DNA from: Hydrurus foetidus
Lineage: Eukaryota
Direction: 5' to 3'
Length of the DNA stretch: 47,335 bases
Assembly (NCBI GenBank): GCA_900617105.1
Contig: UYFQ01000310.1
Location: 1 to 47,335, forward strand
The notes under the pieces were generated by a model. It saw nothing but the letters and a program-made list of their open reading frames with translations. It did not search any database and had not been told where the DNA came from. This document shows, piece after piece, positions 1,657-34,478 of the stretch. Numbering within the stretch: position 1 is the stretch's first letter; each line of letters opens with the position of its first letter. Made by a program: the position numbers and the translations under genes.

Positions 1657-1665
1657 CACCCCCAT
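1657..1665 (-). promoter_or_regulatory. Polypurine tract of Copia-1
   Basis: Minus-strand ATGGGGGTG immediately precedes the 3' LTR TG. Confidence 0.75.
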
Positions 1666-2165
1666 GATGGTTATTGTTTGAATAAGTGAATATGTTAATT
1701 AGCATATGCTTATATAGTATACTTATTGGTTATTGTTCATAATGTTTCACACAACACTCAGATAGGGAGCTTAGTGTTAGGGTATGGTAAACAGTAAATT
1801 TTCTTAAAAATATTTTTCACGGAATTTTTAATATTGACAAGTTGCGTCGTGATATGGTGTAAAATAAAACATGGGTGGTTGGATTAGTAAATGGGTATTA
1901 CTCGAGAAAAACTATTTCTAAACCGTCAAAAAGCCTCAGCTGGTGACCGGTCTCGAGTTCGATCCAACCGATGTTGGTGCCCTTAAATCCGCTAAAACGT
2001 CGACATTCGATGTCGCAAAAGCGGTGCATCGATGTCCCTCGCGGTCCTATCAAACAAATGTTGATTTAAAGCGAAATCAGATTTTTATTTTTATTTTGTA
2101 ATTTATCTGGAAAAAGCGCTATAAGTGGGTAAGTCAAAATCAATAAATAACTCCCCTGAATTTCT

Positions 2166-5100
2166 TTATACATTGAGCACTTGGTCGCGTAGCTCTTGGA
2201 ATAGCTTCCCCTGCAGTGGCTTGGTCAGCAAATCTGCAATCATTTCTTTAGTACTCTTGTAGGTTACAATAATATGGTCTGATTTAATTCGGTCATGCAG
2301 GAAGAAAAACTTGATGTCTATGTGTCTAGTTCTTTCACTGTTGGACCTACCGTTCTTAACTAACTGAATTGTGGATAGGTTATCTTGGTAAATTAAAGCT
2401 GGACCTACCTCATACTCTTGATGGATAAGGAAATTCCTAGTCCATAAAACCTGATTACCTGCTTCAGTCATAGCTACTAGTTCTGCCTCTGTGCTAGACG
2501 TAGTATTTAATTTCTGAGTGGAACTCTTACCATATATTGCTCCCTTACCTAGTGTTATAATACAGCCAGTGTGACTCTTCTTATCTGCATGTACAGCGTA
2601 TGATGCATCTATATAGGCTATAACCTTAACCGGAGTATCTACCTCTAGGGTCAGCGGCATAGCTCTGGTCTCTCTGATATACCGTATAGTATGCGCTAAC
2701 TTATTCCAGTCGTCGGTTCTAGGTTCTAAGACTCTTTTAGTTAGATATGCTATACATGTCAGTATGTCTGGTCTGGTTCTCTTACTTAAATATAACAACT
2801 TAGCTGTTAGTGAGTGGAATCTCTCACGTTCTTTATCTTTCAATAAAGGACTGTTAAGATCGATCTTGAATAGATTATCGTCGGCAGGTGTTCTAGACAC
2901 CCCCACAATCTCTATGCAATCGTCTAACAAGTCTTTTATGAAACCTTCCATGGATATGACAACTCTGCCTAACTGCTCAAAGTTAAAAGTCATACCTATA
3001 TAATTCAACACTCTGCCTCTACTCTTAGTCAGGCCTGGGTATAGGTTTTCTATCTCTGAAATTATACTATCTATACGCTTCTCATCCCTACTGCTGATCA
3101 TCATATCGTCAACATGGATAACTAAAGTAGTCTGAGTGGAATCTAGCTCAGTCCTATTGAATACACATATGTCTGATGGATTTACCTTATAGCCTAACTG
3201 TGTTAAGTCTGATGATATTTTATCGTACCATAACTTAGCTGACTCTACGCATCCATATAATGCTTTCTTAAGCTTAACTACTACTGTTCCTTTCTCATTT
3301 ACATACTTCTGATAGGACTTGTCAATGCTAACTAATATGTTAGTCAAATATTTATTCAGTCTCATCAGCACTGCATGGTCACCGTCTAGTGGCATATCAC
3401 TGTTGAGGAATGCACCAGGAAAATCGATCGTAGCGACCGCTCGATTTTCACTAGCAGCAATTGCAGCAACAATAAATACGCTAGTGGTGCTAACAGTTGG
3501 TGATGAACCGTTATCATATATATTTCTATCTTGTAAGTGACCTCCTGCTACAAGTCTAGATTTTAGCTTATCAAATTTACCATCTGCTGTATACTTATCT
3601 TTTAAAAACATACTGCTGGTTATGATACTTTTCCTCTGATTGTAACTAAGACTGTTGAGGTGAACTGCCTCCCACACATTCTTATCACACATCTGTTGTA
3701 ACTCTTTTTAATGGAATCTACGGCTATCTCGCCTAATTTCTGTACTCCTTCTGTTACGGTCATGTTCATCATGTACTTACACATAACTGAATCTTTGTAG
3801 CTAGGTATACTTAAACCTACTAATCTCTTATTCCATCTACCTGGCTGATGGTTTCTAGCACTACGTCTGGGTTGTTTATCTAGAATTTCCTCTGACTTGC
3901 TATTTTCTGTGGTGGGGGTATCTACCTCATCATCACTGTCTACACCAAATATATCATTCATTAATGCATCGGGGTCAGTTGGTGTATCGTCATACACTAC
4001 ATCCTCTCCTTCATTAACGTATATATCATTTGGTATGTATTCTGTTAATTGTTCGAACTCTGATTCGTAAGCTACATCAGAATTGCCATCGTATGAGTCA
4101 AAATTATTTGCTATCTCATGATGCACAAATTCGTCTTCTGTAGGGTAACTATACGGTGTTATCATGTCAGGTGTCTGCAACTCAAATTCATCGTTGGAGT
4201 AATCATTTCCATCGTCTTCGAGGATTTGATTACTCTGTTCGAAAATAGGTTGCTTGACATTCACTGACATATTTAATTTCCTCTCAGATGCTAACTTATC
4301 GAGGTAACTGATCACATCATCTGTCATGGGTAGGCTAGTAGCCTTTGTCCTCTTTACTACTTTTAAGTTAGCTAACAGCAGATAATACCATGAACCTTCT
4401 AGGTTGCCTGCACTAACTAATGCTATTGCTGCCTGTGATCTGGGTTTAGTCGAGTTGTCCACGGAATCGGTATGTACTTGTACGTAATCACCGAAACCGT
4501 GTTTCAACTCCTTATCTACGTTAATCTTTCTACCGTATAATTTCTCTCTGGGGCTGACGTAAGCTACACTGTTTCTAGTTGGTACTAAATTTAATCTGTT
4601 CACAACATATCTAAGTAACCAACTTTCTAGTAGCTCACTCAGTGAAAAAGGTACCGTGTTGATGATGGCACGAACACGTTCCTTGATCACTCTGATCTTC
4701 CTCTCAACTACAGCTACTGCTTCTCCTGCTCCAGTACTGTCTAATATAATACCTAGTGCGGCTAGCTTACTCTCAAAACTTATAGTGTTAACTGCCGACT
4801 CTCCGTCTATTCTTATCATAGTTATCTTAAATCCATACTTAGTAATGTGATGTATGTTGCTCTCTAAGTTCATCCATAAGGAAGACTTGTTTTTACGTGA
4901 GAGTTTACATATCATCACATATTCTAAGGGATTTGTAACAGTGACTAGATAGGGTATCGAGTTCACAAACATCAAATCTATGTACATAACCTGGTTCAGG
5001 AACTGCCTATCTACAACTGGCATCTCTTCCTCTAACTCAGTTTTGTGACTAGTTGTTTTCCCCTTAAGGGAACCCAAATCTGGTCCAAAAATATCTAATG

Positions 5101-5940
5101 CTCTAACTACATCTTGTGCTGTTATGTCACTCTTATCTAATTTCCCCTGACCTATTAATTTAATTAACTGTCCTGGGCTGGCGTAACCTAACTTTCTCTG
5201 ATACTCTCTAGCTAACTCTGCTGACTTAACTTGTCTAGCTGTATACAGTTTCTTCTTATCCTTAACTGTCATGACCATGATCGATTTATCGAACGATACA
5301 TTCTTGTAACTGACATTTCTGTCTAAGTCGCATAGATATATGTTCGTAGACTGATCATGGACAAATCTATATACAGGTCCTAACTTAATCATCCTAACTT
5401 TGTAACAATCCTGGTCACTGTCATAGCTAACTGACTCGCTCGAGCTGACTATGTTACCGAAGGATAATATATTTGCTATACAATTGCTATCGTAGTAAAC
5501 TGTTCCGAAGTCCGTCTCGCCACACTCCGTGATTATCAAGGGTTCCCCTGAGGGTTCACTCCATTAATAATCATCGGGGTAGCGGACGGCATAATACTAT
5601 AAAATAAATCTCCACTACAAAATACTGACTCTGCTGCACATGTATCTAACAACACTTGTCTCTCTGTAAATGTGGAACTGTGTGTATATACATTCGCACT
5701 AAAAATCACAGGGTCACCCCCACAATTTTTACTGTTCAGTGGACAAAAATTCTCCAATCTGCATGCTTTATCTAACAATGGCACAAACGCAGGGTAACCG
5801 GTCGACGTTGCAAATACGTCATGCAGTCCGGTTTCCCCACACGGAACATTTACATCCTTAGCTAGTGAATCAGGTAAAGAAACATATAAGGGACTTACTT
5901 TTCCGAGGAAGGGTGACGCGCAGGTGCGTTCTTCCTCGGG
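2166..5940 (-). CDS. pol: Copia-1 pol (protease, integrase, RT, RNase H); split by single-base frameshifts at ~5540 and ~3705
   Basis: LLDTCAAES (PR); YIDLMF..IRIDGE..VERKIR (IN); KSRLVAGG, LKKALYG, IHVDDM (RT); YIDASYA, SSTEAELVA, YQDN, RTRHIDIK, ADLLTKPL (RH). Confidence 0.93.
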
Positions 5941-7075
5941 GCTTCTTACACTCGTACGCATAGTGGCCCTCCTCCCCGCAGTTGTTGCAGGCTCCGTAAC
6001 GGGTACCGTACTCCTGTACGGCACCACCTCTCTCTCTCTGCGGGGTGGCCTCCCTATCCCTATAGGGAGTGCCTGCCCTCGCTGTACTCTCGCTGCCGGG
6101 GGTATCGTACCCTCCCTTCTCAGCTCCCTGACTGCCTCCGCGGCCTCTGCCGCCTCTCCCACCGGAACCCGCTCTCCCACCCCGACTGGCCGCGAAAACG
6201 TTTCGCTTCTCCGAGTTCGGGGGAGCTCCTCCGTGGACGGGCCTTCCCATAAGGAAGTTGGCCGCGTCCTGGTTGGCATCACCCATGGTCTGCGGCCATG
6301 GGCGAACCTTATTTTTAAACGTATTAATATATTCTGAATAGTTTGAATTCAGTGCAGTTATAAATAAGACAGCATGGAACTCATCTGTGTGTTCTGGCGC
6401 TTCTTCGTCTGCCAACCTGTAGGCTTCGCTCTTGACAAATAGCAGAGTCCGGCACCTACTATAGTATGCTGCTAGATCTTCGTGTTGAGTCATTTTATTG
6501 TTATAAAAGTTTCTAACTGCTGTAATTATGTTATAGGTTTCTCCATACCTTTTGTTGTTCATGTGTGTTGCAACCACACATGTCAACAGACCTAGTGGAT
6601 CACATTCCTCCATAGCTCTCTTTCCAGCAGGCATCTCGTTCACCCTTGTGATCGAGGCCTCTGACATTTGACCTAATAATACACCATATAGTTTTGCACA
6701 ATCTTTTATAAGTAATTCATCAGCAGCATCGTATTTCTTACGTGCTGTTTTCCATCTCTCTATCGCGACTAGGCCTGCTCCCTCCGGCGGATCTTCAGGT
6801 TCCACCTGCTCCACGTAGTCGTACAGGATTCCGTCGATACCTATAATTTCTTTGATAGTAGATTCATAAGTACTGTACATATATACTCGAAAACATTCCA
6901 GCCATTTCAGCACAGATTCTGGATCTGCCGCTTGTCCTCGCGGCAAATCCAGGTAAGCACCTACCTCGGGCTTCCTACCTTTAGATATGGGTTTATGAGG
7001 CTCTCCTTGCCCTCTACCATATCGACCCCTGCCCCCGCCACGGGACTGGAATCTCCCATCGCCTCGTCCTCTCAT
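5870..7075 (-). CDS. gag: Copia-1 gag
   Basis: RGG-rich N-terminus starting MRGRGDG (ATG at 7075); zinc knuckle CNNCGEEGHYAYEC; homologous to the Copia-2 gag. Confidence 0.9.
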   Translation of the reverse strand: MRGRGDGRFQSRGGGRGRYGRGQGEPHKPISKGRKPEVGAYLDLPRGQAADPESVLKWLECFRVYMYSTYESTIKEIIGIDGILYDYVEQVEPEDPPEGAGLVAIERWKTARKKYDAADELLIKDCAKLYGVLLGQMSEASITRVNEMPAGKRAMEECDPLGLLTCVVATHMNNKRYGETYNIITAVRNFYNNKMTQHEDLAAYYSRCRTLLFVKSEAYRLADEEAPEHTDEFHAVLFITALNSNYSEYINTFKNKVRPWPQTMGDANQDAANFLMGRPVHGGAPPNSEKRNVFAASRGGRAGSGGRGGRGRGGSQGAEKGGYDTPGSESTARAGTPYRDREATPQRERGGAVQEYGTRYGACNNCGEEGHYAYECKKPRGRTHLRVTLPRKSKSLICFFT

Positions 7076-7119
7076 CCTTGCAAAGCTTTTGCAACTTCTA
7101 GCTAATCTATCTAAGGATG

Positions 7120-7130
7120 ACTGTCGTTTA
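7120..7130 (-). promoter_or_regulatory. Copia-1 primer-binding site, non-tRNA, complementary to its own LTR
   Basis: Sense TAAACGACAGT directly follows the 5' LTR; it is the exact complement of LTR sense ACTGTCGTTTA (7262-7252). Confidence 0.8.
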
Positions 7131-7409
7131 TGTTGGAAATCTGGGCGATTTACACGGAATTTCTTCCGAGTTCCCAAACGATCCCTGCACTTCCGACTGC
7201 TAGCAACGCTTGCTCAAAAGAGAAGAAGACGTTCTATTCGGTAAGTTGGATTAAACGACAGTGACATGCTGTCGATTACATCTAGCTAGCATAACATGAG
7301 TGCGAGGGTTGCGGTCAATGCTATCGCTGAATGTACGTACACCCGTGCATGAAAACAATCATACATCACGCAGGGTACATGATCCTAGTCTAATCCGGAT
7401 ATCACAACA
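7131..7409 (-). repeat. Copia-1 5' LTR (279 bp)
   Basis: TGTTG...CAACA inverted termini; identical to 1379-1656. Confidence 0.97.
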
Positions 7410-7592
7410 TTCGTACACACATATATTTCCCCATTTTCATCGTCATTCCGCAGGGAATCTTGGAAACTTGCGTCTTGCTTTCAAATCCACCAGAGGATGG
7501 ATTAACTGCACTTGCTCAGAATTTATATCACATAGTCTGTAATAGTAACAAATCAACGTTGCTGAAGAAATCAACGAAAGTAGTCCAGCACC

Positions 7593-10500
7593 ATGAAGCA
7601 AGCCGACCTTCTCTGGCTTCTATTCCTCACTGGCGTAGCAGCCATCAAAACAAATGAAGCCGATCTCGGAAAAGAAACGATGCGAACATATCAGCCCACA
7701 GTTGAACACACACCCCTTCCAAGAGTGGAGATCACTTTCACCCCAGTATTTATAGAAAATGATTTACCTACGGCTCTTCCGACTGAAGATCCAACAGCAA
7801 AGCCAACTTACCAGCCAACGCCCTCACCAACATACCAGCCAACAGCCGTGCCAACAGCGAAGCCAACACCTTCACCAACGTACCAGCCAACAGCCGTGCC
7901 AACAGCGAAGCCAACACCTTCACCAACGCACCAGCCAACAGCCATGCCAACAGCGGAGCCAACACCTTCACCAACGTACCAGCCAACAGCCTTGCCAACA
8001 GCGAAGCCAACACCTTCACCAACGTACCAGCCAACACCTTCACCAACATTTGTGCCGTCACCTTCACCATCTTTGGTTCCTTCGGTCCTAGCTTCCCCAA
8101 CTCTTTGTCCTACGGGAGCTCCTTATGCTCATGGACGCACTTATAAACCGACGGAAAGTCAAGAGTGTTTCAAACCGACGAAAAGTCCAGTCAGCAAAAA
8201 GCCAACATACAGTCCAACCAAAAAAAATCCTCCTACCCGTCGACCATCTACCCCAAAACCCTCTAAAGCCCCGAAGACGCCTAAGCCATCAACGGGAATG
8301 CCAATATGTCCGCTCTCACAGCCAACACAGTCACCAAGTGTCGATTCTTCTCCACCATTCCCAAACAAGTTCACACCAAGCCCTTTCTCCGTACAGCCAT
8401 CACCTGAACCAACACCTTCACCAACGCACCAGCCAACAGCCGTGCCAACAGCGGAGCCAACACCTTCACCAACGAACCAGCCAACAGCCGTGCCAACAGC
8501 GAAGCCAACACCTTCACCAACGTACCAACCAACAGCCGTGCCAACAGCGAAGCCAACACCTTCACCAACGCACCAGCCAACAGCCGTGCCAACAGCGGCC
8601 AACAGCCAACACCTTCACCAACGTACCAGCCAACAGCCGTGCCAACAGCGAAGCCAACACCTTCACCAACGCACCAGCCAACAGCCGTGCCAACAGCGGA
8701 GCCAACACCTTCACCAACGTACCAGCCAACAGCCGTGCCAACAGCGGAGCCAACACCTTCACCAACGCACCAGCCAACAGCCGTGCCAACAGCGGAGCCA
8801 ACACCTTCACCAACGTACCAGCCAACAGCCGTGCCAACAGCGAAGCCAACACCTTCACCAACGTACCAGCCAACAGCCGTGCCAACAGCGGGGCCAACAC
8901 CTTCACCAACGTACCAGCCAACAGCCGTGCCAACAGCGGAGCCAACACCTTCACCAACGTACCAGCCAACAGCCGTGCCAACAGCGAAGCCAACACCTTC
9001 ACCAACGCACCAGCCAACAGCCGTGCCAACAGCGGAGCCAACACCTTCACCAACGTACCAGCCAACAGCCGCCAACAGCGGAAGCCAACACCTTCACCAA
9101 CGTACCAGCCAACAGCCGTGCCAACAGCGGGGCCAACACCTTCACCAACGCACCAGCCAACAGCCATGCCAACAGCGGAGCCAACACCTTCACCAACGTA
9201 CCAGCCAACAGCCGTGCCAACAGCGGAGCCAACACCTTCACCAACGCACCAGCCAACAGCCGTGCCAACAGCAGCCAACACCTTCACCAACGTACCAGCC
9301 AACAGCCGTGCCAACAGCGGAGCCAACACCTTCACCAACGTACCAGCCAACAGCCGTGCCAACAGCGGAGCCAACACCTTCACCAACGTACCAGCCAACA
9401 GCCGTGCCAACAGCGGAGCCAACACCTTCACCAACGTACCAGCCAACAGCCGTGCCAACAGCGGAGCCAACACCTTCACCAACGTACCAGCCAACAGCCG
9501 TGCCAACAGCGAAGCCAACACCTTCACCAACGTACCAGCCAACAGCCGTGCCAACAGCAAGCCAACACCTTCACCAACGTACCAGCCAACAGCCGTGCCA
9601 ACAGCGGAGCCAACACCTTCACCAACGTACCAGCCAACAGCCGTGCCAACAGCTAGCCAACAGCGGACCAACACCTTCACCAACGCCAGCCAACAGCCGT
9701 GCCAACAGCGGAGCCAACACCTTCACCAACGCACCAGCCAACAGCCGTGCCAACAGCGGAGCCAACACCTTCACCAACGTACCAGCCAACAGCCGTGCCA
9801 ACAGCGAAGCCAACACCTTCACCAACGTACCAGCCAACAGCCATGCCAACAGCGGAGCCAACACCTTCACCAACGTACCAGCCAACAGCCGTGCCAACAG
9901 CGGAGCCAACACCTTCACCAACGTACCAGCCAACAGCCGTGCCAACAGCGAAGCCAACACCTTCACCAACGTACCAGCCAACAGCCGTGCCAACAGCGGA
10001 GCCAACACCTTCACCAACGTACCAGCCAACAGCCGTGCCAACAGCGAAGCCAACACCTTCACCAACGCACAAGCCAACAGCCGGGCCAACACCAATGCCA
10101 ACAGTGGAGCCAACACCTTCACCAACGTACCAGCCAACAGCCGTGCCAACAGCGAAGCCAACACCTTCACCAACGTACCAGCCAACAGCCGTGCCAACAG
10201 CGAAGCCAACACCTTCACCAACGTACCACCAACAGCCATGCCAGCAGCTGCCAACAGCGGAGCCAACACCTTCACCAACGCACCAGCCAACAGCCGTGCC
10301 AACAGCGGAGCCAACACCTTCACCAACGTACCAGCCAACAGCCGTGCCAACAGCGGAGCCAACACCTTCACCAACGTACCAGCCAACAGCCGTGCCAACA
10401 GCGAAGCCAACACCTTCACCAACGCACCAGCCAACAGCCGTGCCAACAGCGGAGCCAACACCTTCACCAACGTACCAGCCAACAGCCGTGCCAACAGCGG

Positions 10501-13500: not shown

Positions 13501-13997
13501 GCCAACAGCCGTGCCAACAGCTGAGCCAACACCTTCACCAACGTACCAGCCAACAGCGAAGCCAACACCTTCACCAACGCACTCGCCAACAGCCGTGCCA
13601 ACAGCGGAGCCAACACCTTCACCAACGCACCAGCCAACAGCGAAGCCAACACCTTCACCAACGTACCAGCCAACAGCCGTGCCAACAGCGAAGCCAACAC
13701 CTTCACCAACGCACTCGCCAACAGCCGTGCCAACAGCGGAGCCAACACCTTCACCAACGCACCAGCCAACAGCGAAGCCAACACCTTCACCAACGTACCA
13801 GCCAACAGCCGTGCCAACAGCGAAGCCAACACCTTCACCAACGTACCAGCCAACAGCTGCCCCAACACCTTCACCAACGTACCAGCCAACAGCCGTGCCA
13901 ACAGCTGAGCCAACACCTTCACCAACGTACCAGCCAACAGCCGTGCCAACAGCGGAGCCAACACCTTCACCAACGCACCAGCCAACAGCGAAGCCAA
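7593..13997 (+). CDS. Secreted mucin-like Pro/Thr-rich cell-surface protein, 3'-truncated by a Gypsy LTR; many frameshifts within the array
   Basis: Signal-peptide-like [17 protein letters not shown]; Lys/Pro/Ser unique segment with Cys residues; long [16 protein letters not shown] repeat that hops between reading frames; the LTR TG begins at 13998. Confidence 0.85.
7791..8048 (+). repeat. First block of the 48-bp coding tandem repeat
   Basis: ccaacaccttcaccaacg(t/c)accagccaacagccgtgccaacagcg(g/a)ag units. Confidence 0.9.
8409..13997 (+). repeat. Main 48-bp tandem array (~5.6 kb, >100 units, with 36-bp deletion variants)
   Basis: Unit encodes PTPSPT(Y/H)QPTA(V/M)PTA(E/K); built from 12-bp ccaac sub-repeats. 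Confidence 0.97.
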
Positions 13998-14270
13998 TGT
14001 AGCCTAGCACGTACGTTCACCGTACACTTTATATACGTTTGTATATATTCACGTATGTATATAATTCACGCACCCATAGTCTATTTTCATCCACATCAAC
14101 TGTCCACCGGTAACGGACGCTCATCAGCATCAGCACCCTTGTAGCCTATCGTTTGTGTCTGTTGTTAGCTGCTTGCTCGCTTCTTTCACAAACTGTAACT
14201 AACCTAACAGTTTACTCCAGCATACCGTCTTTACCCGGATTCTTCGTACTCGAATCCGGCCGCGACTACA
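13998..14270 (+). repeat. Gypsy-1 5' LTR
   Basis: TGTAG...CTACA; homologous to 19908-20181. Confidence 0.95.
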
Positions 14271-14371
14271 ATATTAATATTGAGAGTTGTTAGACGAACT
14301 CTCGTTACTGGAGAGCTAGATAGATTTTCCAACTGCCGACATCCGACGACCATCTGGCACTGATCACCAGT

Positions 14372-17300
14372 ATGGTTTCCAGCAACCGACGAAGACTTTC
14401 CAGGGTATCGGCCGTTTCGACGGCTCCCCTGTCGATTTTCCAGGAAGCGCCATCAACCGACGCCGTCGTCGATATCGTCGCCGACACCATGGACGCTAGC
14501 ACAACGGGAGATTCCGACTCGGCGAATCCTCCCTCGCTTCCAGATCCATCTTTTGCTGCGACTGACGTCGCAGCTCATCTATCTTTCGCCTCTAATCCCT
14601 TCTCGAATTTGGCCCCCGGCGTGGGAGGGGGAAACCCCTTGCAAAATTTTTTGCAGCCATCTTCCGCTCCATCTGGAGCTATTACAGCGGATCTAGCGAT
14701 ATCCCAAGCGGGGGAAGTCTCTGTTGAACATCAACAACTTCCCCAGCGAGTGGATGGAGTATCTTTGGAGCCGGCGCCTTCGCCGTCAGCACCATCGCCA
14801 TCATCATCCACGATGATATCCATCACCGCCGACACCACCGCCATCACCGCCATCGCCGCCACCGACATCACGCCGACACCTGTCATTGTGCGTGATGTTT
14901 TGCCTGCTTTGCCTGTGCTGCCTGTGTTATCTGCCGCAGTTTTGCCTGCAAACCCGGTGCAAACCGATTCCCTGTTGCTCACTTCAGACAGCAATGTCAT
15001 GAACAGAAATGTTCAGAGTGTTGCAACTTTTGCTACCGTTGGTGGTGTTACTAACGATGTTGTTGTTTCAAACCTTGCTGCACGCTATCTATTACCTCAT
15101 GAAAAGGTTAGAAAGCTCAGCAAGGTTCCAACTCATCTGGAAGTTTTAAGCATCACCAACGACCTTCGCAAGAATGGTTGCCCCTATACGTTTCTTGACG
15201 TGGTACCATTAGACGTCGAGCAATCTCTTGTAACACTCCTGCAAAGGCAGTATTGCACTGAGAGAGCAATTCGCGACGAGTGCGAAGAGTGGAAGTCATG
15301 GACTACCGAGAGATTCTGCAAAGAACTCCTCAAGGCAGTACCTGATGAGTCCATCGATACACCTTTGGGTCAGGCATCGTTCCTCGAGCAAGTCTCATCG
15401 TTCAATTTCAGATTTGATTTGAACAACATTGAGACTGACTCCTGTAACGATACTGCCCTTGGTGCATTGGTAGCAAATTTCCCAGCACTACTGCTGAGGA
15501 ACAGCTTAAGGCTGTTAAGATTCTAGAGCGTCAGTTGCCTACCCACCCCGTCAATTGGCAGCTCATCTTACGCCGCAAGGTGAACGGTGAGACTGTTCCA
15601 ATCAACGATTTGAAAGATTTTCGATTCGTTTGGTGGACGCAACTGACTACTCTCAGAAACTCAGCTAACGAGCTTCGGGCTGCTGGTTATGAGGTTACTC
15701 CAGGCCCAGCTACGCGTTCTAAAGATAAGCCTATCTCCAAACGCGCTGCTGAGCCTGATGAGGACACCATCAAACCACGTGCTAAGTCCGCGAAGACTGC
15801 AAAGTCTTCGAATCCCTCAACCACTCGCACCGTACAGGTCTGTGTTGGTTGTGGAAGATCTAATCACACTATCTCTGTGTGTAGATTTACTGCATCACCC
15901 TACTTCAATTCTTCTGACAGTGCATATGCTGATAGCAATGCATTTAAGAAACTGAAAAAGGATTACCCTGATGCATTGGTTGCAAGAGGAGCGTACGTGC
16001 CTACCACCTCCTCTTCTTCCTCTTCTTCTACTGCTACCGCGTCAGCCTCGGCTGTACCGGAGGGTCCGTCTAAGCCGGTCACTAAGCAAAAGAGCTTAAA
16101 GAAGACAAGTAAGTTATCATCAACTATTAGTTTCACTGATGTTGTTATTCCTTCTTCCATATTGGGAGCTCTTACGAACCTTTCGTCAGCTGACTTTCTA
16201 ACTGCTACTGTCACCTATGTGTCACAGCCCAGCCAGCCAAGAAATGAAGTCCAAGTGCTGATCGATACGGGATCGCTCGCCGGCAATTTTGTTGCCATGC
16301 GTGTAATTAAGAATTTTCATTTAGAAGAATTTATTATTTTCGACAAGACACTGACTGTTTGTTCAGCCTTAGATGGAAAATGTTATAACATTTCTAAGTC
16401 TATAAATTTGAAAATGACTTACTTTTCTGAACGTTTAAATAAAAATACTTTTTTAAATTTCAAAGCAATTATTTTAAACAAGTCTTCAGTCGATGTTGTG
16501 ATCGGACGAGTGACAATTCGGGAATCACAAATATTCCTCGAGTTGCCTAGTCAATTAGCATCGACTAATATAGTGCACAGGGCAGCGACCTCAGTAACAC
16601 CCCAAAGGGTTATTGTATCAGGTCTACTAGCTTCTCTCGTCATTCAATCCGAGAATACATCTCAACTGGCTATGCCAGATGATGATGAAATCGGTGAACA
16701 TGAGGCTAGTACCTTTTCACCTTGGTTACCGGATACCAATCCGGAACCGGTTGACCCAGTATCCCTGATTAACATATCGGGTACTCCTGAACTTCAGGAG
16801 TTGATTAGACTACTCTGTATTGAATACAGAGATATCTTTTCAAATACACTTTCATCTCAGCCTGCTTCTATTCCTCCTTTTGATCTGGTTGTTCAGGACC
16901 CTAAGTGGCGTGTCTCTAAAAATAGACAACCACCTAGACCTCAATCAGCAGCCAATCAGAAGGAGATTACTAGACAATTAAATATCCTCATTGAGCAGGG
17001 TATTATTGAGAAATCCACTGCGGCTTATTATAGCCAAGGATTTTTAGTAACTAAGGCTGACGGATCTAAAAGATTCGTTATAGATTACCGTAACTTGAAC
17101 GAATGTACGGAACATGCCTCTTGGCCCGTACCGAACATAACGGAAATGTTACAGAGAATCGGTTCTCAGAAACCGACGATCTTTGGCACGGTGGATTTTG
17201 CTCAAGCATACCATCAAGCCGCATTAACACTCGCTACTAAAAAATATACTTCGTTTATATTATATAGTGGTGTCTATCAGTTTACTAGACTACCTTTTGG

Positions 17301-19575
17301 TCTAAAGCAAGCACCTTCTTATTTTCAAGAGATGATTGCTACTGAAGTGTTAAATACGTTACTTTATAGAATTTTAGAAATTTATATCGATGACGTTAAC
17401 ATTTTTGGAAACAGTCCTGACAACTTTGTTGCACGACTGCGAGAATTCTTTTCTCGCGTTCGTCTCCATAAAATGATCCTTAAACCATCCAAATGTTATC
17501 TTGGCTATGCCGATTTAAAATTTGTTGGTAAGGTTATATCACAAGAGGGACTTAGAATGTCCCAGAGTAAAATCCAATTAGTTTTGGATTTTCCTTGTCC
17601 TACTGTATCCAAACAACTTAAAAGTTTTCTTGGATTGGTAAACTATTTCCGTGATTTCATCAGAAATCAGTCTACGATAGTAAGACCGTTACATGCGTTA
17701 CTTACAAATTATCAAAGAACAAAACGGATAGTATGGACACCAGAAGCAACTTCTGCTTTTAATGAAATAAAGGAACAAGTATCGAAATGTACTACCATTC
17801 ATTTCATTAGTGATACTGCACCAATCACGTTGCACACTGATGCATCTGATTATGGTATCGGTGGTTACCTCTTCCAGACTATTGATGGAAAGGACTATCC
17901 GGTTGCATTTGTAAGCAAATCTCTTTCTGGGTCTCAACTTCGTTGGTCCACTATTCAAAAGGAAGCTTATGCAATTTACTATTCTTGTATTTTTCTACAA
18001 TCACTTTTACGTGATAGATTATTTACAATTCGAACGGATCATAGAAATCTGTTATACATATATAACAATTCTAATCCAATGATTGTTCGGTGGTATGTAG
18101 CACTCTCAGAGTATACATATAAAATTGAATTTATTAAAGGTGTTGATAATGATATCGCCGACTCTATGTCTCGACTATGTCGTAACAATATGATCGACTC
18201 ACCTAAGGAATACTCTGCAGATATGATTCTTGCAGCAGCTATTATTCCGAAAATTCAACTCACCGATATGCAATACAATGCTATATCATCAGTTCACAAT
18301 TCTATGGTTGGTCATTTTGGACTAGCCAGAACTATGAAACGATTAAAAGCAAATCAACATAAGTGGGAATTCATGGAAAATCATGTTAGATATTTCATTG
18401 ACTTTTGCCCACAATGTCAAAAGATGAGTATGATTAAAATACCTATTCATGCTCATCCTTTTACGACTTCGTCGTATTACCCTATGGAATGTTTAAACAT
18501 CGACTTTGTCGGTCCATTTCCTGACGGAGGACATATCCTCGTTATCATTGATACATTCACTCGTTGGACTGAATTGTATCATACTACTGATTCAACTGCA
18601 CTATCCGCCGCCCAATGTCTAATACAACATTTTGGTCGTTTCGGAGCACCTCATCAGTTAAGATCAGATAACGGTCCCCACTTTATTGCTGACGTAATAC
18701 GTGAGTTTTTATCGTTTGTTGGTACTCGACACTGTTTAACATTAGCTTACTCTAAGGAGGAAAATGCTATTGTTGAACGTATGAACAAAGAGATTAACCG
18801 TCACATCCGATCACTCACATACGACAACACTTCATTAGAAGATTACAAATTAGCTTTACCTTTCGTTATGAGAATAATTAATTCAAATCATAGCGATCGT
18901 TTAAAGATATCTTCTGCACAATTACTGTTTGGTAACTGTGTTAATCTTGATCGTGGTATGTTCCGTCCGATTGACGAAGTTCCTCCTTCAAAGAAATCTA
19001 TGTCAGTCTATATGAGTAACCTTCTCAAGACACAAGATAGTCTTAGAAAAGCAGCTGCTAAAGAACTACTTCGCACTGACTTACTTCATATGACACATAA
19101 AAAACAATTACAACATACGGATTACCAACCCGGAACGTATGTATTGGTACATTACCGTACAGGTCACCCGCCTACACGTCTTCATACGTTCTGGCGTGGT
19201 CCTATGAGAGTTATTTCCGGATCAAATTCAAGGTTTACCCTTTATGATCTTATCTCTCATGTCGAAAAAGAATATCATGTTTCAGATATGAAACCTTTTC
19301 TTTTTGATCCACTACGTGTTGAACCATTAGACGTTGCTCGTCATGATTATATGGAATTTTATATTGAAAATATCCTTGAACATCGTGGTGACTTACAACG
19401 CAAAACCTCGTTAGAATTCCTTGTCAAATGGTTAGGTTATGCCGATGAAAACAATTCATGGACATCCTATGCCAATCTTCGTGATACCGAAAAATTACAC
19501 GAATACTTGACATCTAACAATCTTCAACGTTTAATACCTAGAAAGTTTACAAACGTTGTAGATACAAATATATAA
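14372..19575 (+). CDS. gag-pol: Gypsy-1 gag-pol polyprotein (one indel at ~15480)
   Basis: CVGCGRSNHTISVC knuckle; LIDTGS (PR); RLPFG, YIDD (RT); LHTDASDYGIGG (RH); HNSMVGHFG..CPQC, IDFVGP, RSDNG (IN); C-terminal chromodomain ENILEHR..FLVKWLGY..NSW. Confidence 0.95.
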
Positions 19576-19891
19576 TACTAAACAATATCCATGATGGATT
19601 TCAACCCTATTTTTTGTTTGTTGTCGGTCAACATTCTTTTTGGGAGTTTTTAGTCAGTAAGAGTCTGACATAATTGTTTAGATATTATACCCCGACTCTA
19701 AAGAGTGCCGCCGATGAAAATTGTGTCGACAACATTTTGATTTTCATATCCACACATACTACCGAATCTTTAACGATAGATAGGCGTATGGGATCCCTGA
19801 ATAATTTGAAGTAACACCTTTTTCAAATGAGCTATACGTTACCACATGTATTTTCACTCACATTCATTTTCTTTCAATTAACTTAAATTGT

Positions 19892-19907
19892 AAGGAGGAA
19901 GGAGTAG
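19892..19907 (+). promoter_or_regulatory. Gypsy-1 polypurine tract
   Basis: AAGGAGGAAGGAGTAG before the 3' LTR TG. Confidence 0.85.
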
Positions 19908-20181
19908 TGTAGCCTAGCACGTACGTTCACCGTACGCTTCATACACGTTTGTATATTACCCACGTATGTATATTATTCACGTACCCATAGTCTATTTTCA
20001 TCCACATCACCTGTCCACCGGTAACGGACGCTCATCAGCATCAGCACCCTTGTAGCCTATCGTTTGTGTCTGTCGTTAGCTGTTTGCTCTCTTCTTCCAC
20101 AAACTGTAACTAACCTAACAGTTTACCTAAGCATACCGTCTTTACCCGGATTGTTCGTACTCGAATCCGGCCGCGACTATA
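19908..20181 (+). repeat. Gypsy-1 3' LTR
   Basis: Homologous to the 5' LTR with roughly 15-20 differences; ends TA rather than CA. Confidence 0.93.
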
Positions 20182-21112
20182 AGTGCAGTCCGCATTCAGA
20201 TCAATGTACATAAGTTCGCCACAGCGGGAGAGATACTATTCGATGTACTCAACATCGACTTCATAGGCCCCTTCCCTGACGGCAAACACGTCCTTGTCAT
20301 CGTCGATTCATTTTCAAGATAGACAGAGCTGTTCCACTGTAGGGACAGTACGGCCAAGTCGGCAGGCGGCTGTCTCTTGGAACACTACGTCGTTTTGTTT
20401 CACCCAACCTTATACGCTCCGATTGAGGACCACACTTCGCCAATGAACTCATTGAGAAGTTCCTACTCGCGGTTGGTACACCACACAACCTCACCCTGGC
20501 CTATTCGAAGGAAGAGAACTCCAGCGTTGAGCGGGTCAACATGCGACCAACCGCCTTCACGGTCGTTCGAGTTCGAGACACAACAGATCATCAATACCAG
20601 CCAACAGCCATGCCAACAGATAGTTCAACAGCTCTACGGGGGTTTCACCGGGTAACTTACTCTTTGGCAACCGCCTCGACTTGAACAGAGGCATTCTCAC
20701 ACCCTTTCAACAAGCCCTCCCATCAAAGACACCAGACTCACGAATCATGGCTGACATGATCAACGCTCAGGATACAGCGCATAGAACGGTTTAAGAGATG
20801 GCGCAGGAGAATGCGGCCCAACGCTTAACGGAACATTCGGATCCAACCGTCTCCCCCATCGGTTCGTACGTTCTAGCACAGTACGCTACAGGCCCGCCTA
20901 CGCGATTACACACACGCTGGCAGGGCTCGATGAAGGTGATCTCCCACAGAGATTCAGAGTATGTTCTCTTGCACATCGTTTCTAAGAATACTAAGAAGAT
21001 TCACGCTTCAAAGCTCAAGATATTCCTGTTCGATCCAGCTAAAATCGAACCAACGGATTCGGTGCGTCGCGACTACATGGAGTTTTATATCGAAGCTATC
21101 ACAGCTCATGGG
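20182..21112 (+). pseudogene. Degenerate Gypsy integrase / start of chromodomain, from another family
   Basis: FDVLNIDFIGPFPDGKHVLVIVDSFSR*; GPPTRLHTRWQG; RRDYMEFYIEAI; stops and frameshifts. Confidence 0.85.
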
Positions 21113-21436
21113 CAGGTAGTGAGTGCCGCGACGATGAAGCCTGGAGCGCTCATTACCCGTGGGGTGTAATCCATGGCTAGATCCATGAGGTTAGGGCAAA
21201 GGCGGGACAAGGTGTCTGCCCATTTGTTCTGGGAGCCTGGCACGAAATGGATCTTGAAGTCCAGTTCTTGCATCGCTATGGACCAGCGAGTGACCATCGA
21301 GTTTGGGTTATTGTCATATACGTCAGATTCAGGTGATCTGTGTGTATAGTGAACACCCGGTCTCTTAGGAGAGTGCCCATCTGTTGGCAGCAATGAAAGA
21401 TCGCGTATGCCTCCTTCTATATCGTTGACCAACGAG
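21110..21436 (-). pseudogene. Inverted Gypsy RNase H fragment
   Basis: RWSTI*KEAYAIFHCC..LLRDRVFTIHTDHLNL..MVTRWSIAMQELDFKIHFVPG..ADTLSRLCPNL on the minus strand. Confidence 0.85.
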
Positions 21437-22168
21437 ATTTGGTGGCGTTGAATGACTTGCTGACAAACGTGATTGGTTGTTATAGTCTACGCTATACATC
21501 ACACACATGTATGTACAGCCACGCCGCACGCTGCATGTACCCACTAGTTTTCCGTACCAGTTTTTAGGTTTCTGGAGCTTTGACAACTTCAACATGCGAT
21601 GAACTTTCCATTGATTATCTCATCCTCCTTCCATTTCTTTATCTCTTTACTTCAAGTAAAAAGACCGTTTTCTTACCAAAACACTTACCGACTTCGGGCT
21701 CTTTGAGTCTGATCCCTTTCTTTTTTGGCCCTTTTGCCAGCTTGTCAACTGATCAGCCCTTTTGCGGATCCGTAGCACAGCATGAAACTCGTTTTCTCGT
21801 TCTCTACAAAGTCGACAAGTCTGTCCTTTGATCCTTCTCGTTGAAGCACCTTTTGAACGCCGACAAGCAGTGAAAGCCTCGGCACAGTGGAAGCTTTCAA
21901 CAAGAAGGGTAAGCTCAAAGATCATCTCGGTAGATTTGCTCCCTAGAACAACTCTACATTTTTCTCTCGTCTCCGCGTCAACTCCTATATGTCAACATCT
22001 AAGAACCCGCGCGGCAAGAAGACGTCGCTTCCAGATCCTGCACCTCCAGGAACAAGGGAAGCCGATTCTGAAGCAGCGATACCAGATCCTGATGAATCAA
22101 TCATGGATCCTGTTGGCGAGCTCCGCCAAATGTTTGACCAGCTTATCCTCGCTACATCAGCCCAGGGC

Positions 22169-22598
22169 TGTAGCCTTATTGCATTCCTAAGGGGATACAA
22201 TGTGTCTAGGTTAACTAGGTACAATAGGTATATTATACGCCCAGATTCCACTTTTAGGTCTTAGTTCCACATATGATGTAAATGCACTTTAGCGTACACA
22301 TCACTTGTATATACTCAACTGTAAGATACTAACACAAGTCTATTCCACCGACTCTCGCTTCCCTTGCCCGCCGCTTGCACCAACCAGCCACCAACATCAG
22401 CTCCAACGTCCTAGGCCCCGCCCCAGACCACAATATCGATATTCGGTCGATACCGAAGCCTTTTTTCGTGAGAAGTTCGTTTCTCCGCTCCATCAACTTT
22501 AAATCCATCACCTATTTCCGACAGTCGAAGACAATGGCTCTCCGACGCCAAGACAAGAGGATTAGCACCATCAACTCCCTTCGCCGACAACGACAGCC
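22169..22598 (+). mobile_element. Extra Gypsy-2-family LTR (22169-22432) plus leader and first gag codons, truncated by the next LTR
   Basis: TGTAGCC...ACCACA LTR, AATATCGATATT, then MALRRQDKRISTINSLRRQRQP, homologous to the Gypsy-2 gag start. Confidence 0.88.
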
Positions 22599-22983
22599 TG
22601 TAGCCTTATTGCATTCCTAAGGGAATACAATGTGTCTAGGTTAACTAGGTACAATAGGTATATTACGCTCAGATTCCACTTTTAGGTCTTAGTTCCACAT
22701 ATGACGTGAATGCACTTAGCGTACACATCACTTGTATATACTCAACTGTAAGATACTAACACAAGTCTATTCCATCGACTCTCGACTTTGCCTTCGTTTG
22801 CCCACGCCTTCCGTCCTCCGCTTTCCGTCCTCCGCTTTCTCCAACTTCGCCTCCCGTCCTAGGCCCCGCCGTCAGACCACAATATCGATATTCGGTCTTC
22901 ACCGAAGTTTCCTCCGAGAAAGTTTTTCTCTTTTCCGACTTTTTGTCTTCGACTCCTCCAACTTAAACCATCACGTCAAAGTT

Positions 22984-25900
22984 ATGGCTCTACGCCGCCA
23001 AGACAAAAAGACATCCTCCATCAACGCCCTTCGGCGAAAGCAGCAACCTCGTGCTGTAGCCGTCGCGTTCCGACAACGCTATGACGACCATCACAATCGT
23101 AGTGGAGACGCAGAGTCTCCTGGGCCACCTGCGGCTCAGGACCCCGCCGGCGACCTGTCTGCACCGATTCCTCAGCGGAATTCGGAGCCTGCGGTCATGT
23201 CTGTCATTGATATTCCTGTCATTTCGGCGTTATCTGCTTTGTCATTGCAACCAGCTTCGGCTGGACACCAGCTTCGGCTGTGATACCAGCTTCGGCTGCG
23301 ATACCAGATTCAAATGCGACACCAGCTATTGCTGAGAATCCTATTCCAAGGACGATGGCACCACCCCAGCAATATGTGCAGACGGGTGAGAGAGCTCCTA
23401 AGTTGAGCGCCGTGCCCTCTCGTCAGGAAGTACTACGGGTAATGGAGGTCCTCCTTTCAAATGGAACTCCATTTAAACCAGTTGACGTAGTCCATGTTTC
23501 CAACCATCAATCGTTTACAACGCTTCTCAAGCGTAAGTTTGCAACTGATCCCGATCGTCGCGACTCCTGTAACAATTGGAAACATTGGTCGAATCAATTG
23601 TTCTGTAGAGAACTCAATCTCACAGTTCCTACATCAGCTGTCAATCGAACTGACAAGCTGAGTTTCATTGAAACTGTCTCTCAGGTCGCACTTCAATTCG
23701 ACCTGAAGGATAAATCAGTGGAAGACAAGACAGATCAGCTTTTAGCTGATATTGTTGATGGATTCCCTGATGCAACACCCGCTCTCCAACTTCAGGCAAC
23801 CAAAATTCTCATCGATAAGTTGCCTGTCGAACCTATCAATTGGAGAGCAGTGTTACAGCGTAGTCTTAACAATACAACGCCAAGACTCATTACAATCGAA
23901 GACTTTCGATTCGTATGGCTTGCGCAGCTTGCTAAGCTACGAGAATCAATTGATGCCTTACGGTTCATTGATGTCTCTCCTTTGTATGGTGATCACTCTC
24001 GCCAAATCAAAGCTCCTCCTCGTTCCTCTCAGGACAAAATCAAAAAACGTCCACGAGAGAGCGAACAATCAGTGCAATCAGACAAGTCTGACAAATTCGA
24101 AAGACCTCTGTGCACAGGTTGTGGGAGACTTGGCCATTTCGTCGCCACGTGTTTCTACACTACGTCTCCGTACTATAACAGTACAGACGCACCCTATATC
24201 AACTCTGAGGGTCATAAGCAGTTGTTGAAAGTCGATTCAAAGGCTAAGTTTATTCCAACTTTACCTAAGACATCGACCTCTTCTTCATCGTCTTCCTCTT
24301 CTTCTTCCTCTTCGTCAAAACCTGCTACTTCAACAGCAGACTCGACAAACGCTGCGAAGAAACACAAAGGTGAGCAACTATGCAACCTAAATTCATCATC
24401 TATTCTTTCCGATGATCCAGAACTTATTCCTTTCTTCGTATCTCCCCTCTCACAGGAGGTTATGCTGGAAAAAAGTAATAGAGTCTTTACTCTCCTGGAC
24501 ACCGGCTCTTTTGCTGGCAACTTTATACATCGCCGCATTATAACTAATCATAATTTCACACAATTCGTTTCTAACTCTTCAAAGAAATTGTGTAAAGTTT
24601 GTAGTGGATTAGATAATCATTGTTATGATATTTCTGACACTATAGACTTAACTCTTTCTTATTTTTGCCCTGATTTAAATAATTATTATACTTTTCAAAT
24701 CACGGCTTATGTTTTAAACGATTCGAAATTTGATCTAATAGTGGGACGAAAAACAATTCGCGAATTGAATTTATTTTCACGTTTCCCCGATCAAATATCT
24801 GCCAATGCTTCATCAAGCACTACCTCATTAGCGGAAGTTTTATCTTCTGAACAAGTGGATATAACGTGTGGCTGTCAGCCTAAGGAGAAGTTGCAACCCT
24901 CTGATGGCTCCCCAAAGGTCGATCCTTTAACCCAAAAGGTGAAACCGGCAGTAACCCAAACACACGTTATTCTAGCTTCACTAATACAAGAGTCTGAAAG
25001 ACTTTTTGAGGCTGTGCCCCCTGATGAGGACGAAATCGACGACTCGATCAAGGACTCGTTTTCACCTTGGATAGATGAATTTCCTGATACTGACCCACTC
25101 TCGCTAATAAACTTAGCAGGTGATGAAGATCAGAAAAATAAACTTCGGTTACTAGTACACGAATTCAAGGATATATTTAGCAGTGAACTTTCGGCCACTC
25201 CTGCTGATATTCCACCGTTTGACTTTCATGTCAATGACGACCAATGGAGAGTCCTAAAAATAGACAACCTCCATGGGCTAAATCAACAGTTGATCAAGCT
25301 GACATTCTCAGTCAAATTAAAAACTTGAAAAACAAAATATTGTTGAAAAATCAAACGCGGCTTATTATAGCCAAGTTTTACTAGTTCCAAAATCTGATGG
25401 AACTAAGCGCATGTGTATTGATTTTCGGAATCTCAACAATTGTACCGAAGATAAATCACATCCTATTCCACACATCGGTGAGATGTTGCGTAGAATAGGT
25501 GCACATAAAGCAAAAGTGTTTGCTGTACTTGACCTCACTCAAGGTTACCATCAAGCACCACTTACACTTGCTGCACGTGCTTATACTGCATTCATACTTT
25601 TCTGCGGAGTATATCAATTCACTCGTTTACCCTTTGGGCCAAAACAAGCACCCTCCTATTTCCAACAGATTATGACGACTGTTGTGTTAGCAGGGCTGAT
25701 ATACTCTATATGCGAAATGTACATAGATGATTGCAATGTTTTCGGTAAAGACATTGACGAACTCATTTCTAGACTTCGTCTTGTTTTTGAACGCTTTAGA
25801 AAACACAAAATATTCCTTAAACCGAATAAGTGTTATCTAGGCTATGCCGAAATAGATTATGTTGGCAAAGTTCTATCTGCAGATGGACTTAGAATGTCAC

Positions 25901-27890
25901 AAGAAAAAATACGGACTGTCTTAGATTTTCCTAAACCAGTACTATCTAAACAACTCAAAAGTTTTTTAGGATTGGTTAATTATTTTCACGACTTTGTTAG
26001 AAACGCTTCTACTGTTGTATACCCGTTACATCAGTTGCTTCTTAACTATAATAAGTATAAGAAAATAACTTGGACAATAGAAGCTCTCAGAGCATTCAAT
26101 TTGATCAAATCTGAGATTTCAAAATGCACGACTATGCACTTTTAAGTGACACCGATCCGATTTACTTGCACACTGATGCATCGGACTATGGTGTAGGTGC
26201 CTATCTTTTCCAGTTAGTTGACGGTCAAGAAACGCCCATAGCATTTGTCAGTAAATCACTTAACAAAGCTCAGCTTCGTTGGGCTGTTATACAAAAAGAA
26301 GCATATGCTATCTTTTATTCGTGCACGTATTTAAAATCGCTATTACGTGATCGTACGTTCACATTGCGTACAGATCATCGTAACTTGTTATACATCAAGG
26401 ATAATTCAAATCCAATGATTGTTCGGTGGTTTATGGCCTTATCCGAATATTCATTTAAAATTGAATATATACCTGGTGCTAACAATGATATAGCTGATTC
26501 GATGTCTCGACTCTGTCGCAATAACATGGTTGATTTCCCTCAGGAATATACTCCTGATGCAATCATGTCTGCTAATACTATTGAAAAATTCAAACTAACA
26601 CGTGATCAGTACAATACAATCAGTAAAGTACACAATTCACAAGTTGGGCATTTTGGCCTTGAGCGCACTCTAAAGCGTCTCATTGACAAAAAGATAGTAT
26701 GGCAATATATGCGTCAGCATGTCAGGTGGTTCATAGATCACTGTTCGTGTTGTCAGAAAATGAGTATGTTAAAGATACCAATACATGCTCATGGTTTCTC
26801 GACTTCTACTTACACACCTATGGAATGCCTTAACATAGACTTCATAGGACCGTTTCCAGACGGCGGGTACGTACTCGTAATTATCGATACGTTCACAAGA
26901 TGGGTTGAACTGTTTCATACAGAAGATGCTACAGCACTTTCAACAGCTAAATGCCTCTTGCAACACTTCGGTCGTTTCGGCGCACCTCTCCAACTCCGTT
27001 CTGATAATGGGCCACACTTCATTTCCGAAGTTATTAAAGAGTTTCTAACTCTTATTGGCACTCAACATTGTCTTACTTTAGCATACTCTAAAGAAGAAAA
27101 TGCTATTGTTGAGCGCATGAATAAAGAAGTAAATAGACATCTTCGTGCATTAACATTCGATAATGTCACACTAGAAGATTATAAAACGTCACTTCCATTT
27201 GTGCAACGAATTTTAAATTCTAATCACAGTGATCGTTTAAAAATATCATCTTCTCAACTTCTTTTCGGAAATGTACTCAAACTCGATAGAGGTATCTTTT
27301 TACCTCCTGCTGAGCGAAATGTTACTGATGACAAACCTTTGTCAAAGCGTATGAGCAATCTACTCAAAACGCAAGACAGTCTTCTTAAAGCTTCTGCTAA
27401 AGAACTTCTTCGCACAGATTTGCTTCATCAAAGTCAGTCTCAAATTTTTCAGCATGTAGAGTATCCAAAAGACTCTTATGTCTTGGTGCACTATCGCGAT
27501 GGATCTCCTCCTTCACGTCTTCACACGCATTGGAGAGGTCCATTAAAAGTCGTTAGTGGCGAAAATTCGCGTTACACACTTTATGATCTAGTCACTCAGA
27601 AAACATCAGAATTTCATGTTTCTGCAATGAAACCTTTTCTATTTGACCCATCAATCACAAATCCGTTAGATGTTGCACGACGTGATCACATGGAATACTT
27701 TGTTGAAGATATTCTTGATCATCGTGGCAAACATCAACGTACCCACATAGAGTTTTTAGTCAAATGGTTAAATTACCCTTCAGACAAAAACACTTGGGAA
27801 CCTTACTCAAATCTTCGTGATGTTGATAAGCTTCATGATTATTTACGTCACAATAACATGACTAATTTAATCAATAAACAACACCGTTGA
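22984..27890 (+). CDS. gag-pol: Gypsy-2 gag-pol polyprotein with several single-base frameshifts
   Basis: MALRRQDKK start; CTGCGRLGHFVATC knuckle; LLDTGS; YIDD; LHTDASDYGVG; IN core; chromodomain FLVKWLNY..NTWEP; clearly homologous to Gypsy-1. Confidence 0.92.
23251..23327 (+). repeat. 18-bp coding tandem repeat in the Gypsy-2 gag
   Basis: ccagcttcggctg(n)gata x3-4 (PASAVI/PASAAI). Confidence 0.7.
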
Positions 27891-28088
27891 CTTTTATATA
27901 CATATATCCTTGAAACTTTATCCATGAGGATTCTCTCCCATTTTTTTTTACCTTAAGGTCTTTTTTGGAGAGTTAAGTCTGACATAATCGTTTCATGTTT
28001 TCATACACTATATATATATACATGTACTTTTCTTTCATTTTTTTATATCACACATTCGTGTGGATTTTGAAAAAGGAAGAAGGGGTAG

Positions 28089-28340
28089 TGTAGCCTTATT
28101 GCATCCCTATGGATACAATGTGTCTAGGTTTACTAGGTACAATGCGCCCAGATTCGAATTTAGGTCTTAGTTCCCTATATGACGTGAGTGCTCTTAGCGT
28201 ACACATCACCTTCATCTATTTAACTGTAAGATATTAACACAAGTCTTTATCACCTTGACTCCACGTCCGCTTGCCCACGCTTTCCGTCCTTTTCCCTTCC
28301 CAACTTCGCCTTCCGTCCTAGGCCCCGCCGTCAGACCACA
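28089..28340 (+). repeat. Gypsy-2 3' LTR
   Basis: TGTAGCC...ACCACA after the PPT; diverged from 22599-22881, with deletions. Confidence 0.92.
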
Positions 28341-34444: not shown

Positions 34445-34455
34445 TAATTAACAAT
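34445..34455 (+). promoter_or_regulatory. Copia-2 primer-binding site, non-tRNA, complementary to its own LTR
   Basis: TAATTAACAAT is the exact reverse complement of LTR 34295-34305 ATTGTTAATTA. Confidence 0.8.
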
Positions 34456-34478
34456 AGCTTTCGAACTTTCAACTTGCA

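Follow-up and report, generated by a model that had tools for sequence, protein, structure and literature searches.

How do LTR retrotransposons begin reverse transcription when a palindrome occupies the place of the tRNA primer-binding site (PBS)? The question is raised by a 47,335-nucleotide stretch of Hydrurus foetidus DNA (the window; contig UYFQ01000310.1), whose DNA is also present in metagenomes from freshwater, sediment and biofilm. LTR retrotransposons are nested in this stretch: Gypsy-1 (13998-20181), Gypsy-2 (22599-28340, preceded by an additional LTR and leader at 22169-22598), a third Gypsy element on the minus strand that is 5'-incomplete, and two Copia elements. All three Gypsy elements encode reverse transcriptase (RT), RNase H, an integrase and a chromodomain. 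Judged by their sequence, Gypsy-1 and Gypsy-2 are chromoviruses: Pfam matches and the protease motif give the Ty3/Gypsy order protease-RT-RNase H-integrase with a C-terminal chromodomain, the LTRs are of the TG...CA type with a polypurine tract ahead of the 3' LTR, and the closest relative with a solved structure is Ty3 Gag-Pol. The features are listed in Table 1.

Table 1. Features of the two plus-strand Gypsy elements, in window coordinates.
Feature	Position	Strand	Basis or remark
Gypsy-1 5' LTR (TGTAG...CTACA)	13998..14270	+	93.5% match to 19908-20181; no target-site duplication
Conserved 12-nt palindrome AATATTAATATT	14270..14281	+	At the PBS position; comprises the final A of the LTR and 11 nt beyond it
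Predicted U5/leader helix around the Gypsy-1 palindrome, 14262-14267 with 14285-14290	14262..14290	+	Fold -9.0 kcal/mol, z -1.8; register differs from the common register of the clade
Gypsy-1 gag, N-terminal frame	14372..15526	+	ORF list; first ATG 102 nt past the LTR end; no Pfam match
Gypsy-1 gag C-terminus, protease, RT, RNase H, integrase, chromodomain	15448..19575	+	Pfam (RVT_1, RT_RNaseH, Integrase_H2C2, rve, Chromo); protease motif at 16261
Predicted clade-conserved four-helix RNA junction, Gypsy-1 3' UTR	19582..19677	+	
Gypsy-1 polypurine tract	19892..19907	+	From sequence
Gypsy-1 3' LTR	19908..20181	+	LTR comparison; ends TATA
Extra Gypsy-2-family LTR, followed by palindrome, leader and gag start	22169..22432	+	78% match to 22598-23037
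12-nt palindrome AATATCGATATT, extra copy	22432..22443	+	
Gypsy-2 5' LTR (TGTAG...CCACA)	22599..22881	+	79% match to 28089-28340
12-nt palindrome AATATCGATATT, Gypsy-2	22881..22892	+	
Predicted Gypsy-2 U5/leader helix, AGACC 22874-22878 with GGTCT 22894-22898	22874..22898	+	Common register of the clade
Gypsy-2 gag-pol with chromodomain, several frames	22984..27890	+	ORFs, Pfam, protease motif
Gypsy-2 polypurine tract	28070..28088	+	From sequence
Gypsy-2 3' LTR	28089..28340	+	LTR comparison

Both elements are interrupted and have no target-site duplication; they may therefore be inactive, which weighs against the reading that we favour below. As their LTR pairs are also just 93% and 79% alike, this suggests that they are recombined copies. 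Immediately upstream of Gypsy-2, the LTR, palindrome, leader and gag start are duplicated (22169-22598). The Copia elements lie at 1379-7409 (minus strand) and 34078-40714 (plus strand), the second with a 5-bp target-site duplication. The first has a 380-nt duplication (98.7% identical) on both of its sides, at 999-1378 and 7410-7788; within it begins a gene whose product looks secreted and carries a long PT-repeat array (Pfam PT, below the cut-off).

A preliminary description of this DNA had reported a perfect 14-nt palindrome, CAATATTAATATTG, at 14269-14282 in Gypsy-1 and a 12-nt one in both copies of the Gypsy-2 junction; all are present at these places, as is the AGACC/GGTCT extension described for Gypsy-2. 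The 14 nucleotides of Gypsy-1 are indeed symmetric, but the conserved unit is the inner 12: the outer C..G pair is complementary in only 3 of 18 families, and we regard it as a chance extension in Gypsy-1. In both elements the palindrome has the form AAT-xyz-z'y'x'-ATT and begins on the last A of the 5' LTR, so that this A and the next 11 bases take the PBS position. The LTR ends were set independently of the palindrome, by comparing 5' with 3' LTRs. In Gypsy-2 the two part directly after CCACA. In Gypsy-1 the match extends one base past CA through a shared A, and we placed the end at CA because of the inverted termini TGTAG..CTACA. A perfect 12-mer palindrome begins at 19 of the 47,324 possible positions in the window, whereas the 5' junctions of its Gypsy elements have one in the same register in 3/3 cases. 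The palindrome is not an assembly error, since contigs from independent runs bear the same sites. One such contig crosses the Gypsy-1 site and differs by a single substitution and a single gap, both outside it (among the differences listed, 40 of 92). For Gypsy-2, 428 contigs from four runs gave no substitution at 1% or more inside the palindrome or within 22856-22897, a comparison that shows the sequence to be present and, as contigs drop rare variants, cannot show such variants to be absent; indels were listed just upstream of this interval.

The preliminary description had named non-palindromic relatives as evidence that would speak against it. To avoid circularity, we looked for relatives by a protease motif common to 35 aligned Gag-Pol proteins rather than by the palindrome. 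Protease-pattern scans returned 16 and 24 loci, of which 34/40 were relatives; the other six (L001, L009, L010, L016, L028 and L029) were dropped as they held no retroelements. Many relatives (21/34) stop short of the LTR junction, beginning inside gag or being rearranged. Each of the 13 that reach it has AAT-xyz-z'y'x'-ATT on the last A of the LTR (13/13), and in one of them (L034) the LTR boundary was confirmed by the element's own 3' LTR. A profile search of the five bins with such contigs added five junctions, again all palindromic (5/5). Three additional sites (L109, L110 and L111) were picked by pattern and are hence biased. AAT and ATT are the same at all 24 sites, and eight centres occur between them: ATTAAT, ATCGAT, AATATT, ATATAT, TATATA, TACGTA, AGTACT and ACTAGT. 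The pattern search of the bins was itself mostly noise: among the 335 matches listed, 13 were palindromic (counted by eye), of which 10 lie at junctions of retroelements; the other 3 have no retroelement match and fall within ordinary genes or between genes. A palindrome within the integrase gene of L003 was discarded as it lies away from any LTR. Three of three scans of viral contigs found no relatives.

Some further observations come from this survey. The same palindrome signature stands upstream of a gag from a distant chromovirus lineage (L111:282-293, G004:C38), whose relatives are chromoviruses with a Pol 27% identical to that of Gypsy-1 and whose LTR boundary lacks an independent fix. 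Several bacterial genome bins (G001-G005) are rich in contigs with eukaryotic-type LTR retrotransposons (L002-L008 and L011-L015), which is likely binning contamination. A TGTAA..CTAAC motif occurs 44-134 nt upstream of the LTR end, with loose matches in 12/24 LTRs (in the window at about 14194-14205 and 22747-22760, and also in L017, L035, L073, L076 and L109); it is a candidate polyadenylation signal or branch-point-like motif.

These sites lack the signatures of known primers. As the preliminary description had claimed for the window, no TGG was found near the LTR end (0/24 sites; TGG occurs only 12 nt downstream, in 4/24), and a search of the window for tRNA genes gave none. The eight self-complementary variants also argue against a half-tRNA primer, i.e., one that pairs with internal host tRNA sequence. 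For a primer of the Tf1 type, which is encoded within the LTR, the best complements of the post-LTR bases in the window Gypsy elements were 7 and 8 of 11 (shuffles about 7.4), and across 22 sites the best were 6-9 of 11 (shuffles 7-8). When L034 and L038 were compared with their own 3' LTRs (partial for L038), the complements were 8 and 7 of 11. Both window Copia elements served as positive controls, each with an 11/11 complement of its post-LTR bases within its own LTR. We therefore rejected a Tf1-type primer for the Gypsy elements, where the best complement is at shuffle level, in agreement with the earlier claim that there is no LTR-internal complement. The sole complement of the site within each window Gypsy element is the site itself. 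We also considered the Conserved Hairpin Site (CHS) that fungal GalEa elements have. As in GalEa, the palindrome includes the last A of the 5' LTR and there is no tRNA PBS, at 24/24 sites. GalEa belongs to Ty1/copia, whereas the elements here have RVT_1 and the Gypsy domain order. A second, downstream repeat of the GalEa kind (CHSeq2) was rejected: the best match was 5-7 of 9, none above shuffles, at 24/24 sites. Thus two non-tRNA signatures do coexist in the window, the Gypsy palindrome and the LTR complement of both Copia elements. Of the second tRNA-independent mode that had been proposed, the palindrome at the PBS position and the missing tRNA and Tf1-type signatures stand as observations, and priming itself is what they suggest.

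Evidence for function comes from covariation, for which we aligned 23 sites (20 distinct), leaving out L111. The six core pairs are Watson-Crick in 120/120 cells, with 16 double changes, no single-sided change and no G-U pair; the central TA-to-CG swap noted between the two window elements is thus one of several compensatory changes across the clade. The flanking four-pair U5/leader helix is much looser: it is 70% paired in a register picked after inspecting the data (45% in an alternative register), shows 7 double and 11 single-sided changes, and has common G-U pairs, whereas the core has none. Its own pairing is only modestly above cross pairing (p about 0.009), and it is absent or shifted in several families, which counts against our preferred reading. 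When half-sites were swapped among 18 families, two of which had been picked by pattern, 100,000 trials gave 4.2 symmetric families on average and at most 13, compared with the 18/18 observed. In a quick tree built from 22 RT rows, the centres are scattered, and two relatives with near-identical RT (L024 and L031) have CG and TA centres, respectively.

Could such symmetry be without function? Methyl-CpG decay on the two strands may make the centre of a fixed AT-rich motif toggle between CG and TA, or the site may be bound as DNA by a dimeric protein. Both the TA/CG swap within the window and that between L024 and L031 are exactly the two transitions of CpG decay, and either alone could be its product. 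CpG decay is excluded as a general cause because the six other centres among the relatives need transversions, and CpG is not depleted in the two window pol regions (observed/expected 0.95-0.97). Furthermore, a single-change form occurs at 0/24 sites and in none of the contigs aligned to Gypsy-2, and a protein site would conserve letters rather than symmetry alone. We consider an absence of function highly improbable, as the covariation largely refutes it. On this comparative evidence, the palindrome is a real feature and its symmetry is under strong selection.

What the site does can be approached from its position. The right end of an LTR is defined by the start point of minus-strand synthesis. 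Because this start sets the LTR end and the palindrome abuts that end in every case, the palindrome lies at the primer position, and it very probably serves as primer site in a mechanism without tRNA. Our preferred reading, which we hold with moderate confidence, is that two element RNAs pair and that one of them, once cut, serves as the tRNA-free primer for reverse transcription of the other. The two packaged RNAs would form a symmetric 12-bp duplex, often lengthened by the short predicted U5/leader helix. By analogy with Tf1, the element's RNase H would cleave one strand where the duplex ends, behind base 10 or 11 counted from the LTR, leaving a 3'-OH that faces the partner's U5. RT would extend this end into minus-strand strong-stop DNA. 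Later, the 11-12 bases of the primer would be copied into plus-strand strong-stop DNA, and this copy would have to equal the original site for the second strand transfer. Such copying and matching would impose strict Watson-Crick symmetry, with each arm rewritten from the other, and this rewriting would yield double changes without lasting single-change intermediates.

The preliminary description had offered a hairpin or intermolecular pairing as options, and predicted energies separate them. For six sites, the isolated 12-mer has a hairpin of 0.0 kcal/mol, and its predicted dimer energies are -6.8 to -10.9 kcal/mol (37 C) or -14 to -19 kcal/mol (5 C). Pairing of two RNAs is favoured because the 12-mer dimerises but does not fold on itself, and the hairpin is the less likely form; the weakness of AU-rich 12-bp duplexes at 37 C weighs against the favoured reading. 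In a cis fold-back, the RNA would be cut just past the palindrome, and its 3' end would fold into a 4-bp stem with a 4-nt loop for RT to extend. A single RNA would suffice for this, and the uncut site with its flanking helix can form a hairpin in Gypsy-1 (-9.0 kcal/mol) and in several relatives. The symmetry alone is no proof of pairing in trans, as fold-back also demands full symmetry: the second strand transfer would require it there too, so a symmetric centre is compatible with a hairpin, although that transfer would be the sole force keeping it. The case against the hairpin is thermodynamic, drawn from modelled folds. Only four pairs, mostly A-U, are left after the cut, the 12-mer itself folding at 0.0 kcal/mol; the palindromic hairpin is absent from the best fold of Gypsy-2; and no duplex in cis is long enough to guide a Tf1-like cut. 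We consider fold-back priming unlikely.

Pairing in trans might also involve a different partner. The primer required under the preferred reading runs from the last A of the LTR through base 10, i.e., the same RNA shifted by one base. A separate short sense RNA of the element that starts at or near this A, from a second start site or as a processed fragment, would supply exactly this 11-nt primer, with Tf1-like ends and from another molecule. A contig from an RNA run crosses the LTR/leader junction, though contigs show no RNA ends; such a primer seems doubtful to us, more so than fold-back. It is about as improbable, if marginally less so, that the palindrome serves only as a dimer-initiation or packaging signal while a tRNA fragment, another host RNA or a protein primes. 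Palindromes do drive retroviral RNA dimers, with one lying in the PBS of HIV-2 (PMC5874298), and Ty3 dimerises via a 12-nt palindrome of its tRNA primer (PMC5371799). Here, however, the palindrome fills the primer position itself, a host primer would have to match eight self-complementary centres, and G-U pairs, which RNA-only helices tolerate, never occur in the core.

Separately from the junction, we observed a conserved element directly past the pol stop codon that fits a four-helix RNA junction, drawn by hand from the same sequences in which 90.5% of 294 cells are paired, with 45 double changes (0/500 shuffles as high). It ends in a 5-bp stem with a 7-nt loop and is loosely cloverleaf-like. 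Besides the Gypsy-1 copy, the window has it at about 27915-27992 (plus strand; this Gypsy-2 copy looks partly deleted) and about 43376-43470 (minus strand), and it also occurs in L003, L008, L020, L024, L025, L036, L038, L050, L063, L065 and L074-L076. Rfam gave no credible match in 13900-28500.

Taken more broadly, our preferred reading of two paired element RNAs would add a third way to start the minus strand, next to tRNA and Tf1-type self-priming: within the genomic dimer each RNA would prime its partner, and the symmetric 12-bp duplex between them would serve as dimer signal and primer site alike, with its symmetry rewritten in each cycle. At least two chromovirus lineages, whose Pol proteins are only 27% alike, may use it, as may fungal Copia elements by convergence, and the four-helix RNA of the 3' UTR may take roles of the tRNA. 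We put this wider proposal forward tentatively, as a serious possibility. If priming does occur in trans, the RNAs would dimerise and prime in a single step, with no need for a host tRNA. A practical consequence is that annotation tools that rely on the PBS will overlook such elements or label them wrongly.

To our knowledge, the priming of LTR elements that have no tRNA site has been worked out for Tf1 only. Diatom (Thalassiosira) Gypsy and Copia elements are said, in Repbase annotations, to self-prime via a 12-bp palindrome; if this is right, they share the length, the position and the proposal with the elements here, as an annotation without comparative or experimental test. In the literature covered, which excludes Repbase Reports and most subscription journals, we found no such statement on diatoms and no palindromic primer site described for Gypsy elements; the available portions of Maumus 2009 (PMC2806351) and Kojima 2024 (PMC10886601) do not mention palindromes.

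The nearest described counterpart is the CHS of the fungal GalEa Ty1/copia elements (CHSeq1/CHSeq2), a 10-nt palindrome in the same register, for which Donnart et al, 2017 state that it agrees with none of the known models and mention dimer-initiation sites (PMC5445492). The two have in common the missing tRNA PBS, a palindrome right after the 5' LTR that counts its last A, a possible U5/leader extension and the proposal of a PBS function (PMC5445492). The GalEa site is found in Copia elements, is 10 nt long, has two main variants and is followed 12-41 nt downstream by a second complementary repeat (PMC5445492), whereas the site here is found in Gypsy elements, is 12 nt long, has eight variants and lacks the second repeat at 24/24 sites. 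To the question that GalEa poses, the clade contributes covariation: eight symmetric centres, no wobble pairs and a near-identical pair of elements with a double change.

Self-priming of the Tf1 type is well known among chromoviruses, and Tf1/Tf2/Tj1, Tf1/sushi and Tcn1 elements resemble those here in being chromoviruses with no tRNA primer, a PBS that follows CA and starts with AT, and flanking U5/leader duplexes, the primer of Tf1 being its own RNA (PMC4600332, PMC6317226, PMC11042837, bioRxiv 2022.12.06.519325). In contrast to the elements here, whose site is self-complementary and has no complement in the LTR, Tf1 takes its primer from the 5' end of the transcript, encoded within the LTR, and its PBS is stated not to be palindromic (PMC5445492). 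The Tf1 PBS likewise begins with AT, and cDNA carries a copy of it (PMC11042837); a similar copying of the primer into plus-strand DNA would explain both the missing wobble pairs and the jumps between symmetric forms. The dimer-initiation palindromes of retroviruses, including that in the HIV-2 PBS, share the switch between hairpin and intermolecular duplex but coexist with a tRNA PBS (PMC5874298), whereas here the palindrome takes the place of the PBS. The GalEa Copia palindrome and Tf1-type self-priming in chromoviruses are known already; what is described here is a palindromic site across a chromovirus clade.
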